Source of the DNA: a virus | Lineage: Duplodnaviria; Heunggongvirae; Uroviricota; Caudoviricetes | Virus record (IMG/VR): IMGVR_UViG_2671180673_000008 | Direction: 5' to 3' (one strand) | Length of the DNA stretch: 12,303 nt | Shown here: positions 1,989 to 7,212 of the stretch, piece by piece | Layout of the letters: each line of letters starts with the position of its first letter | Numbering within the stretch: position 1 is the stretch's first letter | Notes under the pieces: model-generated | Databases searched by the model: none | Told to the model about the DNA's origin: nothing | The model's input: the letters and a program-made list of their open reading frames with translations, nothing else | Position numbers and translations under genes: made by a program

Positions 1989-2037
1989 AGAATGATGTGT
2001 TGGTCTGTATTTTATTAGTTCACATACAATTATCAGA

Positions 2038-2352
2038 TTATTCTGGGAATAAGGTCTGAATATTCTTTTTTATTTTATAAAAATTGCATTCAACTCCGCT
2101 AGGCTGATTATCCTGGTATGTTTCCTTGATGCTAACGGTATTGAAGGGGAGGTTGTCCTCTGGCCATTCGGCCATCCAGTAGGCAAATGCTGGGTTGCGC
2201 TTTATGAGCGCTAGCCCAGCCAGAAAGGCCGCGCGTTGCGCGCGGCTGCGTTCGGAGGCTGGCAGGCTATCGAGGTAATTGCACGCCTCCTGTTCACTCT
2301 TGACGGCGGCGGGCTTCAGATAGAAACTTATCCGTCTGGTTGGTGTCGTCAT
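2038..2352 (-). CDS. parR: ParR-like centromere-binding adaptor (plasmid R1 ParR/StbB family), 104 aa
   Basis: From internal ATG at 2352: MTTPTRRISFYLKPAAV...LDSLPASERSRAQRAAFLAGLALI resembles R1 ParR (...TIAFKLNPDV...LDSIPQGERSRLNRAALTAGLALY) as I remember it. AAGGAG 8 nt upstream. Starts 4 nt after parM stop. The 149-aa track ORF (2038..2487) overlaps parM and is taken as an over-extension. Confidence 0.7.
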   Translation of the reverse strand: MTTPTRRISFYLKPAAVKSEQEACNYLDSLPASERSRAQRAAFLAGLALIKRNPAFAYWMAEWPEDNLPFNTVSIKETYQDNQPSGVECNFYKIKKNIQTLFPE

Positions 2353-2356
2353 TGGT

Positions 2357-3316
2357 TTACTCCTTGTCCATTGCGTACAGCCCATTAACCAGAGCAAACT
2401 GTGGCACCCCGTCCGCGATGAAAGTCGCATTAACTCCGCAGACTTCGCGGATAGCGGGTGCCACAATCTCCGCCCCTCCACCGACAACCATCACCCGCCC
2501 GTAACCCGAAAAAACCGCCAGCGCGCGGATCACGCGTTGTTTCAGTGTTTCTTCCTTTTCACGAATAACCGCCATCAGGCTGGCGTAATGCGCGTCATTG
2601 TGGATGTGCTGGCGCAGCCAGGCTTCATCATGGCGATGTTCGATAATGGTATTGGCGATGTGGTGACTGGTGCGCATACCGTTAGTGGCCATCACCGACA
2701 GTACGGCATCGGCCATCAGGGAAACGCCTACGTGTGGATCGCAAAACACCTGGCTGATACCTGCCAGTTGCCCTTGAACCTTTGCCACATCCAGCGTGGT
2801 TCCGCCTAAATCCACAATCAGCAGGGATTCAAACGGACTCATGTCAGCCAGTGCTTTAAAGCCAGCCGGAATGGATTCAGGCATAACCCGCACGTTACGG
2901 ATAGTGAATGCTTCGCCGTTCTGGTATTCCACCGGGCGCATAACGTTCGCTTTTTTGCGGTTGATGTTGGCCATGTCCGGCTGTGCGTTTGTGTCGAAAT
3001 ACTCGCTCAGTGGCAGGGTGACAACCACATCCACCTCCTGTGGCGTGATGCCTGATTTGACCAGCGCGTGATGAATGGCGATTACATTCACATCGCTGTA
3101 CTGGTATTGCGTGTCGGTCGTCTGGACAAAGCGATCGCTAACCGGATCAAAACCATAGCGCACGCCATCAAGCATGTAGTTCGCGGGCTGCATGCCACCG
3201 AACGGCGCAGACCATTCCGACTTGAAGCTGTTCGGGCTGATGGCGTTGCGGCGTTCGCCATTCTCAGTCCATGCCAGCTTGATGTTGGTGGAGCCGTCGT
3301 CGATACAAATTTTCAT
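2357..3316 (-). CDS. parM: ParM/StbA-like actin-fold partition ATPase, 319 aa
   Basis: N-terminus MKICIDDGSTNIKLAW...ISPNSFKSEW...YSDVNVIAIHHAL closely matches R1 ParM (MLVFIDDGSTNIKLQW...ISPNSFKREW...YSDVNVVAVHHAL) from memory. AAGGA RBS about 9 nt upstream of ATG at 3316. Confidence 0.8.
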   Translation of the reverse strand: MKICIDDGSTNIKLAWTENGERRNAISPNSFKSEWSAPFGGMQPANYMLDGVRYGFDPVSDRFVQTTDTQYQYSDVNVIAIHHALVKSGITPQEVDVVVTLPLSEYFDTNAQPDMANINRKKANVMRPVEYQNGEAFTIRNVRVMPESIPAGFKALADMSPFESLLIVDLGGTTLDVAKVQGQLAGISQVFCDPHVGVSLMADAVLSVMATNGMRTSHHIANTIIEHRHDEAWLRQHIHNDAHYASLMAVIREKEETLKQRVIRALAVFSGYGRVMVVGGGAEIVAPAIREVCGVNATFIADGVPQFALVNGLYAMDKE

Positions 3317-3345
3317 GTCGCTTTTCCTTATGTTGATTAATTAAT

Positions 3346-3386
3346 CGTTTACGGGATTCTGAAATCCCGTTTTTGCCTGTTTTGTG
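3346..3386. repeat. hairpin-repeat copy 1, intergenic between gpA and parM; candidate parC-like centromere/operator or + strand terminator
   Basis: cgTTTACGGGATTctgaAATCCCGTTTTTGCCTGTTTTGTg. Contains perfect inverted repeat ACGGGATT/AATCCCGT followed by a T-rich tract on the + strand. Confidence 0.6.
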
Positions 3387-3392
3387 CGCGCT

Positions 3393-6215
3393 TCATATAT
3401 CGCTGCGCGTTTTTTGCTCATTTACGGGATTCGTAAGTCCCGTTTCTGTCTGTTTTTTGTTTCCACTGGTCAGGCCACCCCGCAGCAGGTCTGCTTTGCG
3501 GCTGGCGCGTTCAGTGGTTTCACTGATTCTCTGTGCGTGCTCTGCGTCGCGGATGGCGCGCAGCATGTCAGAAAGCACGGTAACGGGTGTTTTCATGGTG
3601 TTCTGGCCCTGCTGAAGTGTGGATGCCAGGCGTGCGGCGGCTTCAGGGTCTGATGCCCCCAGCTGTGCCAGATAGCTGGCGACCGGGTTATGGCGGATCT
3701 CCGTGCTGCTTACGCCATGATTACGGCTCAGGCGCTGCCAGAGCTGCGTGATTCGGCTGTCCGGGCGGGTATCCGGTTTGCGTACAATTTCAAATCCCTG
3801 CGGTGCAATGATGCTGCCGTCAACGTACAGACTGCCGCCCCGTAACAGGTGCTGCATCTGTTGTTCACCGATATGCAGGCCGAGAGATTCAGCAGACTCC
3901 CGCCATTCTTTAGCGAGTAATTCGTGGTTATCAGGCAAAGGCCGCTGCTGTTTGCGGCTCTGTGTCCAGCTCTGCATTTCATCGCTGCTGTTTTTTGCCT
4001 GTTTGTCACGAAGCGAACGCATCAGCGCCCGGCGTTCGTGTCGTTTCAGTGAGCGCATCCATTCGTTCACTTCAACGCCGTCAGGGAGCTGCGGCCACGG
4101 TGCTGGCCGTTCTTCCGGCTGTTCTGTCCCGTTGTTGTCCGTTTCCTGTACACGGGGACAGTTATTGCCACGAGTCCAAGGGGCGGCAGGGCCGCCCTGA
4201 AGGTCAAAACCATTTTCGCGGGCGCTGTCTTCCGCTTCCGGTTTACGTCTTACCAGCTTCCAGTTATCCGGATGCGTGCACACACGGGAGGATTCCCCGA
4301 TGAGTGGTGACCAGATCCCGTAAATCTGTACGCTCTGTTCGCCGTAATCGTTCAGCTCATCTGCGAGGTCGTAGGCGGTGCGAATCAGGTAGTCCTTGCG
4401 TGGAACAAGCACGCCACCCTGTTTTTCAATGTAGGTGGCAAAACACCCGGCATCGGCGGCAGCGAGTACCGCATCCATTGCATCATCTTTCAGCCGTTGC
4501 GGGCCTTCCGGATTGCGTGCCATCTGGCTGGCAAGGCGGCGCAGTTCACGCCACACCTGACGGGAGGGGATGCCAAAGAACTGGAACTGACGGACCCGGT
4601 GAAGGCGCGCCCAGCCGATGGCGCGCTCCACGCTCTCGGCCATTGATTTTCCGGTTTCGTGGTCCACGCGTGGCTTGCCCGTTTTCGGGTCGATGCCATC
4701 CACGGCGCGGCTGTCCAGGTTCTTTCCGATGTAGGTGGCGATGTAGCTGGTTGGCGTGCCTTTTGAGCCGTCGACATACTCCACCTTAAAGCGCGGAGTA
4801 ATATCATTGCCCAGCTCGTGGCGGTCTTCCTGAATGGCAATATCGCGGGTATGGGACACAATGGTGTCGATTTCTTCCGGATGTGCAAAGACCATCATAT
4901 GCCAGTGCACGGTGCCGTCATGATGAGGCTCCACCGTGCGGATGCCATACCAGCGCAGGCCGTCGCGGTTCAGTTTTTTGCGGACCGCCGCAAAAAACGT
5001 GTTAACCAGGTAATCGCTGGAGTCGCGCATTGTGGCCCCGTTCCATTTGGGATTCGGATGACCGTTCTCCGTTGTGGCGTGGTATTTTGACGGGCAGGTG
5101 ACAGTCAGAAACACCGCTTTGTCGCCACGGGCTTCGGCCAGAAGTTCCAGTCCCTTCATGGTGGCCATCATTTCTGCCTTACGGTGAACCGGGTTACTTA
5201 CTCCCGCGTAATACACTGTCTCGAGATCAATCGTGAACCCGTCTTCATTTTCCAGCATGAAACTTTTCAGGAAATCGCGTGTTTTCTCGCGCTGTGCGCG
5301 AAACTCGCTTAACGCGTCCTGGCTCAGATAGGGTGATGTTTTTCTGGAAACCAGACAGGCGGCGCGGAGTTGTTCTTCTCTCCACTCGCAACGTAACAGC
5401 CACAGTTTGCGTTTCCACCATTCCGCACAGGTCAGGCGAAGGATTGCGCCCGGCAGCAGCTCCGTGTCCGGTTCGTTCCTCCGGTCTTTGTCTGTTGTCA
5501 GTGCGTCATAATGTGGAGGCATGGCGTGCAGGTGTAACGCCATGCGGGCCAGCATCTGATACGCCTTCAGGGTTACATCCATGGTCAGCTCGCCATCGGT
5601 CGCGCCAAAGCCATCGCAGAGTTTTTCGAAGGTGCTGCTGAACATCGCCGCCGTCATGGTGGCCAGCGTCTGTATCTGGTGTTTGTTGAGCTGCGGCAGG
5701 TAAAGCAAATCGTCCAGGCGTTCGCGTCCGGCAAGGGAGCGATAACCCGGTGTCAGCCAGCGTCCGTCAGTGCTATCCAGACGTTCGAATATTTTGCGCA
5801 GGGTTCCGCGTGCATAGCGTTCCGCCTGCCAGCTCTTTTTGCCTTTCCGGCGATCGGCTTCCTGTTTTTTGCGCAGGAAGGAGAGGTGGCGAATAAGCGG
5901 ATCGCGCAGATAGGACGGCAGCAGGCGCAGCGAGGCCATGGCTTCATCCACCGCGCCACGTGCCTGTTTTCTGGCGTCTCCTGCCAGTGTGATGGTTTTG
6001 TCCTGTTTTTCCTGTGCGTCCAGGCTTTTATTAATCAGGTTGCCCAGCGGCGTGGCTGAGAACGCCGCATCAGCCATTTCCTGGCGGCGCTCGTTCTCTG
6101 CCCGGTAGGCATCCAGCCAGGAGGAAAGCGCGGATTCAGGAGCGGGGATCCCCGTTCCTTCACGCCCCACTGCGTGGCGCGGTTGTTGCCAGTCCCTGAG
6201 GTACTCTGCCGTCAT
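3393..6215 (-). CDS. rolling-circle replication initiation endonuclease, phage P2 gpA family, 940 aa
   Basis: Conserved blocks recalled from P2 A: LTVTCPSKYH, TVEPHHDGTVHWHMMVF (HUH metal-binding motif) and TSYIATYIGKN (paired catalytic tyrosines). ATG at 6215 lies 6 nt after the stop of the upstream ORF. Confidence 0.85.
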   Translation of the reverse strand: MTAEYLRDWQQPRHAVGREGTGIPAPESALSSWLDAYRAENERRQEMADAAFSATPLGNLINKSLDAQEKQDKTITLAGDARKQARGAVDEAMASLRLLPSYLRDPLIRHLSFLRKKQEADRRKGKKSWQAERYARGTLRKIFERLDSTDGRWLTPGYRSLAGRERLDDLLYLPQLNKHQIQTLATMTAAMFSSTFEKLCDGFGATDGELTMDVTLKAYQMLARMALHLHAMPPHYDALTTDKDRRNEPDTELLPGAILRLTCAEWWKRKLWLLRCEWREEQLRAACLVSRKTSPYLSQDALSEFRAQREKTRDFLKSFMLENEDGFTIDLETVYYAGVSNPVHRKAEMMATMKGLELLAEARGDKAVFLTVTCPSKYHATTENGHPNPKWNGATMRDSSDYLVNTFFAAVRKKLNRDGLRWYGIRTVEPHHDGTVHWHMMVFAHPEEIDTIVSHTRDIAIQEDRHELGNDITPRFKVEYVDGSKGTPTSYIATYIGKNLDSRAVDGIDPKTGKPRVDHETGKSMAESVERAIGWARLHRVRQFQFFGIPSRQVWRELRRLASQMARNPEGPQRLKDDAMDAVLAAADAGCFATYIEKQGGVLVPRKDYLIRTAYDLADELNDYGEQSVQIYGIWSPLIGESSRVCTHPDNWKLVRRKPEAEDSARENGFDLQGGPAAPWTRGNNCPRVQETDNNGTEQPEERPAPWPQLPDGVEVNEWMRSLKRHERRALMRSLRDKQAKNSSDEMQSWTQSRKQQRPLPDNHELLAKEWRESAESLGLHIGEQQMQHLLRGGSLYVDGSIIAPQGFEIVRKPDTRPDSRITQLWQRLSRNHGVSSTEIRHNPVASYLAQLGASDPEAAARLASTLQQGQNTMKTPVTVLSDMLRAIRDAEHAQRISETTERASRKADLLRGGLTSGNKKQTETGLTNPVNEQKTRSDI
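3418..3460. repeat. hairpin-repeat copy 2, inside the last ~22 codons of gpA
   Basis: TTTACGGGATTCGTAAGTCCCGTTTCTGTCTGTTTTTTGT. Imperfect direct repeat of copy 1, about 73 bp away, with inverted repeat ACGGGA/TCCCGT and a T-tract. Confidence 0.6.
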
Positions 6216-6659: not shown

Positions 6660-6890
6660 TTAATGGAGTTTGTTTTGCTGCTGGATGAGCTGTTGAAGCT
6701 CGTGCAGATCATCCGCCAGATAGCTGAAAACAGAGGCGGAATAAATGTTTGATAGTGCGTGGCTGCGCTCATGCAGCATATTGATGTGCATGATTTGCGC
6801 GACGCGTGATGCGCGGGAAAGTCTGCGGTTGATTTCAGTCTGGATGTGACGACGCTCCGCGATAGCGCGGTGCTGTTTGCGGTTTGCCAT
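6660..6890 (-). CDS. hypothetical small basic protein, 76 aa, possibly DNA-binding
   Basis: ATG at 6890 with GGGG about 9 nt upstream. Arg/Lys-rich N-terminus (RKQHRAIAERRHIQTEINRRLSRASR). First ORF after the structured non-coding island. Confidence 0.5.
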   Translation of the reverse strand: MANRKQHRAIAERRHIQTEINRRLSRASRVAQIMHINMLHERSHALSNIYSASVFSYLADDLHELQQLIQQQNKLH

Positions 6891-7069
6891 GGTGTGGCCC
6901 CTTGTGTAGTAAGTTGTGAAAACTCACCATCCAGAGCTGCGAAACTGTGGGTGGCGAGACGTACGAGGTTCGCAGTACCGGCTACACAAGAACCCGGCCC
7001 GACCGAAGTCGGCCCCGTACGCCCCGCCATAATTCTGACGCGAAAAAAACGTGGCAATACAGTACGCAC

Positions 7070-7090
7070 AAAAAAACCGCTGGCGCGGTT
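7070..7090 (-). terminator. intrinsic terminator on the - strand inside the early gene string
   Basis: Minus-strand reading AACCGC gcca GCGGTT followed by TTTTTTT (+ strand AAAAAAACCGCTGGCGCGGTT). 6-bp GC-rich stem, 4-nt loop, 7-U tract. Confidence 0.6.
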
Positions 7091-7212
7091 GTGCGCTTGT
7101 GTAGTCAGCAGGCTGCGAAACCCGGCACCCGTTTTATGAGGTGCAGCGGAAATGTAACCTGACTGATTGCGGCATGGCAAGCGGTTTTTTTGTGTGTGCA
7201 TGCTCTGGTTTC

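Follow-up and report, generated by a model that had tools for sequence, protein, structure and literature searches.

A ParM/ParR-type partition cassette next to the replication gene of P88-like Escherichia coli prophages, with a putative role in segregating phage circles

We analysed a stretch of DNA of 12,303 nucleotides (IMG/VR record IMGVR_UViG_2671180673_000008, Caudoviricetes; hereafter the window, meaning the whole stretch) that belongs to a P2-like element and in which two genes, parM and parR, follow the replication endonuclease gene gpA on the minus strand. By domain content, gene order and conserved motifs, the pair appears to be a genuine and complete type II cassette of the ParM/ParR family standing right after gpA. 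An earlier note on this DNA had proposed a plasmid-type ParM/ParR locus in that place, and matches to Pfam, PHROG and the structures of R1 ParM bear it out, on the minus strand and at the positions given below. We favour the view, held at a probability of about 0.5, that the cassette is a complete and selectively maintained ParM/ParR/parC-type segregation system that would act on the extrachromosomal circular phage genome after infection or induction. The locus, and the speculation that it serves plasmid maintenance, were already published in 2022; what is added here is modest, namely a P2-specific ParM clade, the near fixation of the locus in the Xuanwuvirus lineage, a mosaic ParR with conserved ends and a two-site GGG-N10-CCC architecture upstream of parM.

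The first gene of the cassette, parM (2357-3316, minus strand), encodes a predicted actin-fold ATPase of 319 amino acids, with matches to Pfam StbA_N (E 2.7e-82), to the ParM C-terminal domain (E 1.1e-68) and to PHROG 691, annotated as 'partition protein' (E 6e-90); an NCBIfam search gave sub-threshold matches only. The product aligns to structures of R1 ParM (1mwk and others) over residues 2-316 with an E-value of 1.1e-92 and about 50% identity. Its nucleotide-binding motifs are intact and identical to those of R1 ParM: DDGSTN (the phosphate 1 motif), MPES with the catalytic Glu, DLGGTT (the phosphate 2 motif) and GGGAE (the adenosine motif), and in the alignment E147 and D169 of the window protein correspond to E148 and D170 of R1 ParM. 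In all 15 pairwise comparisons of Xuanwuvirus copies, parM gave dN/dS values of 0.01-0.14, and the gene is thus under strong purifying selection; within the lineage, amino acid identity is 97-99% for ParM and 82-98% for gpA.

The second gene, parR (also stbB; 2038-2352, minus strand), encodes a putative small ribbon-helix-helix adaptor of 104 amino acids that matches Pfam Plasmid_stab_B (E 1.9e-28) and PHROG 2515 (E 3e-54), its N-terminus also giving a weak match to the structure of pB171 ParR/StbB (2jd3, E 0.012). Its ATG at 2352 is served by an AAGGAG ribosome-binding site and lies four bases past the parM stop codon, an arrangement in which parR is apparently translationally coupled to parM; a 149-amino acid open reading frame (ORF) opening on TTG was considered as an alternative parR and set aside as an unlikely gene. 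Beside the conserved ParM, the lineage holds at least three ParR alleles that are 52-62% identical to the window ParR, and DNA homology to phage P88 breaks inside parR at about window position 2298 (window 2038-2298 against P88 9820-10131). All alleles keep the N-terminal strand RRISFYLKP with the helices that follow it, as well as a C-terminal N-I-x-x-[LF]-F-P motif within the last ~8 residues, and it is the linker that varies. A motif of this kind, [KR]-x-N-[AI]-x-x-[LMF]-F-P, is common to the ParRs of IncI plasmids and of P2-associated elements (the D6 version is weaker), and the N-terminal strand is likewise shared with plasmid and phage ParRs. Conservation at both ends is what one would expect if ParR works as an adaptor that binds DNA through its head and ParM through its tail.

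The element that carries the cassette is an integrated P2-family, P88-like (Xuanwuvirus, Peduoviridae) prophage of E. coli. The segment comprising parR, parM and the 3' end of gpA (window 2000-3480) is 100% identical to many E. coli chromosomes, including those of the ST131 strains JJ1887 and O25b:H4. In JJ1887 the element is a prophage of about 39 kb in the serS/dmsA interval, with genes for an integrase, a C-type repressor, Cox and gpA alongside the complete P2-type set of portal, terminase, capsid and tail genes. This identical chromosomal copy settles two points that had been raised from the window alone, that the element is an integrated P2-like one and that structural genes should be sought elsewhere in it; the co-orientation of the cassette with gpA in an element bearing both an integrase and a repressor likewise holds, parR, parM and gpA all lying on the minus strand and the integrase and repressor genes both being present in the JJ1887 prophage. 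The JJ1887 copy itself (chromosome 940000-958000) looks defective, with a frameshifted tape-measure gene, an IS1 in the tail-fibre gene and a shortened late control D-like gene.

Among 5426 complete E. coli genomes, 1304 carry the locus, at 1442 chromosomal and 2 plasmid places. In these genomes the corresponding gpA type occupies 1545 places against 1444 for parMR (~93% co-occurrence), and parMR appears to be a nearly fixed backbone module of the P88-like (Xuanwuvirus) lineage, not variable cargo. Among isolated phages, the locus matches P88-like phages only (14 records); of 384 phage records with a gpA homologue, these 14 Xuanwuvirus records are the ones that hold this ParM, and the cassette is intact in plaque-forming or inducible isolates such as P88 and PhiSM. 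The earlier note had held its proposal open to two outcomes, that the proteins are not of the ParM/ParR families or that the locus is a common, fixed component of P2-like phages with a known non-partition role: the locus is indeed common and nearly fixed in one P2-like lineage, a non-partition role is not known for it, and the proteins do belong to the ParM/ParR families.

Beyond E. coli, a protein search recovered ParM intermediates, 54-62% identical to the window protein, in Hafnia, Plesiomonas, Serratia and Enterobacter; identity reaches at most 52% for plasmid ParMs and 48% for the phage-plasmid D6. Every intermediate with enough context sits in a P2-like prophage with the order gpA (sometimes followed by one or two ORFs), parM, parR, variable cargo and portal, and the same gene order is found in a more divergent E. 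coli copy (ParM identity 93%). The genes beyond parR differ from one element to the next, being DUF4760 and membrane protein genes in the window, HicAB in two Serratia prophages and small ORFs in P88, with a KAP NTPase gene as a further example. In a neighbour-joining tree, the P2-associated ParMs form one clade (16 of 109 sequences), with the tested ParMs of IncI plasmids, integrated plasmids, conjugative elements and D6 all outside, and on this tree we place the window ParM in a phage-specific, P2-associated clade. The diversity of the locus was drawn from this protein search and contig look-ups; a locus search of genome contigs gave three near-identical loci only. Two ParM homologues of ~50% identity on chromosome-sized contigs were rejected as members, one belonging to an integrated plasmid and the other to a conjugative element and neither to a P2-like phage. 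A 97%-identical P88-like parM locus was also met on a 226-kb contig (NZ_JBQPOM010000071.1) of an assembly labelled as the Gram-positive Vagococcus sp. WN89Y, most likely through contamination or assembly mislabelling.

The end of gpA and the start of parM, transcribed in the same direction, are separated by 76 bp, and the candidate centromere spans this gap and the last part of gpA. The repeats that the earlier note had seen upstream of parM were located at 3345-3386 and 3418-3459 as two direct repeats of 42 nucleotides, 83% identical and 73 bp apart, each with one 20-bp palindrome (ACGGGAyTnnnnAATCCCGT) built on a GGG-N10-CCC core. The proximal palindrome, ACGGGATTTCAGAATCCCGT (3351-3370), is a candidate parC-like ParR site 52 nucleotides upstream of the parM ATG; the distal one, ACGGGACTTACGAATCCCGT (3424-3443), is a second candidate ParR site 73 bp away that falls within the final codons of gpA. 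Across 41 kb of prophage and flanking DNA the 20-bp palindrome occurs in these two places only, against 0.01 expected by chance. Each of three lineages has exactly two GGG-N10-CCC cores within 260 bp upstream of parM, always with a spacing of 72-73 bp, at positions -125/-52 in five Xuanwuvirus copies, -131/-59 in Plesiomonas and -128/-55 in Hafnia, for a background rate of 0.07-0.46 per kb and with diverged sequence around the sites. In Hafnia the ORF upstream is a different one and the sites still stand beside parM, so that they belong to the cassette and not to gpA. From this pattern of conservation, the two GGG-N10-CCC sites are likely the best candidate for a parC/operator, as a minimal centromere.

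Between these sites and parM, a 12-bp palindrome, GATTAATTAATC (3335-3346), includes an ATTAAT(C)AA box directly before the ribosome-binding site of parM. The ATTAAT is invariant in the three-lineage alignment, and the palindrome might serve as an operator or as a weak -10 element. A search of the coding strand gave no consensus sigma-70 promoter in the gpA-parM interval, nor any terminator on that strand between the two genes; a promoter at the ATTAAT box, examined by hand, shows at best four of six -10 matches with poor -35 matches and is not claimed.

Several steps follow in the mechanism that we favour. ParR dimers would occupy the two GGG-N10-CCC palindromes on either side of the gpA stop codon (their distance of 73 bp amounts to about seven helical turns, which would therefore put both on the same face of the DNA), the conserved C-terminal peptide of ParR would seed or capture filaments of ATP-ParM, and these filaments would push pairs of parC-bearing sister phage circles apart. 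Such segregation would spread replicating circles or supply copies to both daughter cells. We expect parMR to be expressed with the early (lytic) operon, after infection or induction, because the cassette stands at the end of that operon and is co-oriented with it in every context examined, and neither a coding-strand terminator nor a consensus promoter lies between gpA and parM. The DNA acted upon would most likely be an extrachromosomal phage circle, since the element is found integrated in nearly all cases and lacks a replicon of plasmid type. In P2-type phages, monomeric circles are both the product of replication and the substrate of packaging, and a plasmid-style segregation mechanism is therefore sensible for them. 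Family membership, intact motifs, purifying selection, synteny, the two-site layout and the chromosomal location are what the comparisons show; that ParR binds the palindromes, when the genes are expressed and what the phage gains from them are what we infer, and a cytoskeletal function serving the phage is the reading that we prefer as plausible. As a broader and more tentative proposal, on the hesitant side of even odds, an integrating P2-family lineage may have taken over a ParMRC clade of its own, whose centromere would be a minimal one of two sites, to move or segregate its monomeric replicative circles.

A number of observations weigh against this segregation model. The expected timing of expression is deduced from gene order, and a weak autoregulated promoter may lie at the ATTAAT box; two sites, where R1 has ten iterons, may mean that the ParR complex is regulatory rather than centromeric. 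In a Serratia/Enterobacter subgroup the layout upstream of parM is different, with inverted arms of ~14-20 nucleotides placed 26-28 nucleotides apart. In plus-strand orientation, both palindromes form 8-bp stems with a T-run behind them, and a terminator scan called them terminator-like. Large clusters of ParM on long contigs are C-terminally truncated or frameshifted (224 amino acids and then a frameshift in P0009, with 649 members; 188 amino acids in P0017, with 555 members), and the parM match of phage 503458 is split into four pieces: parM is inactivated in some prophage clones. A gene of the Hok/Gef toxin family stands beside ogr at the far prophage end (34928-35068 in P88, 7614-7754 in the JJ1887 copy L025 and 1291-1431 in the copy L012), so that P88-like phages hold homologues of both stability loci of R1, parA (parMRC) and parB (hok/sok), which fits a longer episomal phase than the model assumes. 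Finally, the literature that we searched held no functional study of the locus.

The Hok/Gef gene counts in favour of another explanation, in which the element is a facultative or stable plasmid prophage whose ParMRC keeps the phage genome as a low-copy episome, as speculated by Rousset et al. (2022). Complete partition cassettes are characteristic of low-copy plasmids and phage-plasmids, the phage-plasmid D6 relies on a StbA/StbB pair of 48% identity, and one circular 'plasmid' record of 34.5 kb is a whole P88-like genome, integrase included. Altogether seven records of the plasmid collection match, this complete phage-sized circle, one of 26.8 kb with a partial match, and large ones of 0.2-1.4 Mb. 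We rejected phage-sized 'plasmid' records as evidence of an episome, as records of this sort also come from P2-like phages that have an integrase and no ParMR (pENTAS02, without partition genes, was also deposited as a phage-sized circle); such records probably reflect excised circles. Against the episomal, phage-plasmid-like state raised in the earlier note, 1442 of the 1444 places in complete E. coli genomes are chromosomal, an integrase and a repressor are present, and no plasmid-type initiator is annotated in either complete P88 or the JJ1887 prophage. The sole replicon is gpA, in a repressor-controlled early operon, and from P2 biology a repressed episome would not replicate; nor would parMR be expressed from it, if transcription reaches the cassette by read-through from the early promoter. 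A P2-like phage-plasmid that appears to be a true one, Arsenophonus paPv10, carries RepA and an ATPase and has no integrase. A stable phage-plasmid lifestyle is not supported by these distributions, and we consider maintenance of a stable plasmid prophage by the cassette unlikely.

The remaining alternatives bear on the palindromes, on the activity of the cassette and on its target. The palindromes may not be a centromere at all, the ParR site lying elsewhere or being lost, and could instead be Rho-independent terminators of plus-strand antisense transcription from the convergent cargo, or protect the gpA/parM mRNA. The plus-strand stems with their T-runs have folding energies of about -10 to -11 kcal/mol on either strand, as such a role would have it; nevertheless, the equivalents in Plesiomonas and Hafnia keep the GGG/CCC cores and the same spacing with a weak stem or no stable one (-4.6 to -6.5 kcal/mol at the distal Plesiomonas site), which suits recognition by a protein and not RNA hairpins, the fixed spacing of 72-73 bp has no rationale for terminators, and a separate hairpin (1966-1988) already stands between the convergent parR and cargo genes. 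We regard this explanation as rather improbable. Still less probable, to the point of a slim chance, is that the cassette is a mere relic that no longer does anything, or that it works on the host chromosome through the integrated parC: disrupted parM genes are common in some clones (the P0009 and P0017 clusters) and the JJ1887 copy is itself degraded, but purifying selection on parM is strong, synteny and cis sites persist across genera, and the cassette is intact in the plaque-forming or inducible phages P88 and PhiSM. We likewise give little credence to a role in lysogenic conversion or exclusion, by which prophage ParR/ParM would hinder incoming plasmids or related phages through partition incompatibility or defence. 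The cassette does lie in the gpA-portal region, which Rousset et al. (2022) define as a hotspot with many defence systems, and diversifying selection could give ParR alleles that diverge beside a conserved ParM; however, PADLOC returned no match for ParM or ParR, and the cassette is lineage-fixed and always adjoins the replication genes, the truly variable cargo lying beyond parR. The variable presence and the similarity to defence proteins that mark defence cargo in the P2 gpA-gpQ hotspot were thus not found for parMR. With plasmid ParMs at 52% identity or less and IncI and D6 upstream regions made of unrelated iterons, without GGG-N10-CCC sites, cross-reaction is also unlikely, and both the sites and the N-terminal strand with which ParR contacts DNA remain conserved from one allele to the next, unlike what escape from incompatibility would predict.

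The locus has been listed before, under several names. Rousset et al. (2022; Cell Host Microbe, PMC9122126) analysed the gpA-gpQ region of 18,150 E. coli P2-like prophages and reported a 'putative plasmid partitioning system' in about a fourth of P2-like phages, for which they speculated on plasmid maintenance; their supplementary Table S5A lists the arrangement of the window (DUF4760, StbA, Plasmid_stab_B and two hypotheticals). Two accessions of that table, WP_000686485 and WP_000211282, are those annotated on the identical JJ1887 copy, and in RefSeq the genes already bear the names ParM and 'plasmid partitioning/stability family protein'. In the PhiSM paper the gene is listed as a 'fitness' factor with no analysis, and the P88 paper likewise does not analyse the locus.

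Outside the cassette, gpA (3393-6215, minus strand) encodes a putative replication endonuclease of 940 amino acids (Pfam Phage_GPA, E 5e-131), against 761 amino acids in P2; the two proteins are only ~31% identical, over residues 77-744, and the long C-terminal extension of the window protein matches mainly PHROG 6857, whose function is unassigned. Homology to the nick site annotated in P2 would place the origin near window position 4180, some 0.75 kb away from the candidate centromere. The P2 cos sequence had no match in the window. Further upstream, Rfam gathering-level matches to C4 antisense RNA (83 bits; 6947-7034, minus strand) and to the Hfq-binding small RNA isrK (65 bits; 7070-7144, minus strand) stand directly upstream of a 76-amino acid ORF (6660-6890, minus strand) that is annotated in P88 as 'derepression protein', and the group looks like an antisense-RNA/antirepressor control module of the P1/P7 immI type in a P2-like early region. 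On the other side of the cassette, two AT-rich plus-strand genes converge on parR (575-1072 and 1112-1954; GC 0.29-0.37 against ~0.55 in the phage backbone). Their products are a DUF4760 protein and a hydrophobic protein of 280 amino acids, probably membrane-spanning (PHROG 12528), with a weak PADLOC match to the CRISPR VI-B accessory protein Csx27 (E 1e-5); this cargo is likely a hotspot passenger and a possible defence candidate. The hairpin between parR and the 1112-1954 ORF (1966-1988) is an 8-bp GC-rich one with arms GGCACCCT/AGGGTGCC and a 7-nucleotide loop, a probable bidirectional terminator, although the terminator scan did not flag it, the T-run being absent.

If the segregation model is right, a classical integrating coliphage would have a cytoskeletal step in its life cycle, and would offer what is, to our knowledge, the first Gram-negative counterpart of the AlpAC system of CGP3. 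There could then be a transient carrier or pseudolysogenic episomal phase, or both daughter cells could be lysogenised or productively infected. The matter reaches beyond one phage, as about one in four complete E. coli genomes has the cassette, those of the pandemic ST131 lineage among them. Were the circles positioned or segregated, the idea of phage-encoded cytoskeletons (PhuZ, AlpC) would extend to ordinary temperate coliphages and affect models of lysogenisation and of the carrier state; were plasmid-like persistence conferred, P2-like phages would join the phage-plasmid continuum.

Compared with known systems, the cassette is closest to R1/R100 ParMRC and to the StbA/StbB pairs of IncI and IncF plasmids, with which it shares the order parM then parR, the Pfam families, the ATPase motifs and the presence of repeats upstream of parM; with IncI ParRs it also shares the N-terminal ribbon-helix-helix region and a C-terminal N-x-x-x-L/M-F motif. 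It differs from plasmid ParMRC in lying in an integrating prophage, in its separate ParM clade and in the absence of a consensus promoter within the candidate centromere. The parC of R1 consists of ten 11-bp iterons that flank the promoter, in contrast to the two palindromic sites 73 bp apart in the window. The window ParR is also shorter (104 amino acids against 113-140 in aligned relatives), part of the middle helical region being missing. As for the low-copy extrachromosomal carrier that goes with type II partition, 2 of the 1444 places are on plasmids.

Among phages, D6, a P1-like phage-plasmid, has the only other ParM of this family in a collection of 50,697 records (StbA, 48% identity). 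Its ParM is likewise followed by a small partition protein and its annotation notes similarity to 'phage P88 StbA'; unlike the window element, D6 is a 91-kb extrachromosomal plasmid prophage with extra ParA-like genes and unrelated upstream repeats of the TCTCA type. The system of Rousset et al. (2022) is the same locus, treated there as hotspot content and here as a lineage-fixed module beside gpA with the variable cargo beyond it. The Arsenophonus nasoniae element paPv10 (NZ_CP123514.1) shares the P2-type structural and gpA module in a circular extrachromosomal record of 33.8 kb, and differs in its RepA-type initiator and AAA ATPase (31562-33245), with no integrase and no ParM; several similar Arsenophonus records of 33-36 kb exist beside it. 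The functional model that we favour by analogy is the CGP3 prophage of Corynebacterium glutamicum, where the actin-like AlpC and its adaptor AlpA, which binds upstream of the operon, are induced early and tie the excised, circular phage DNA to filaments; without them the phage does not replicate efficiently (Donovan et al., 2015; PMC4446434). That system belongs to another host phylum and phage type and to a distant Alp family, whereas the window proteins are close relatives of ParM and ParR; both are nonetheless integrated prophages that encode an actin-like protein together with a DNA-binding adaptor, co-transcribed in CGP3 and apparently so here, with sites (alpS in CGP3, the two palindromes as candidates in the window) upstream of the genes.

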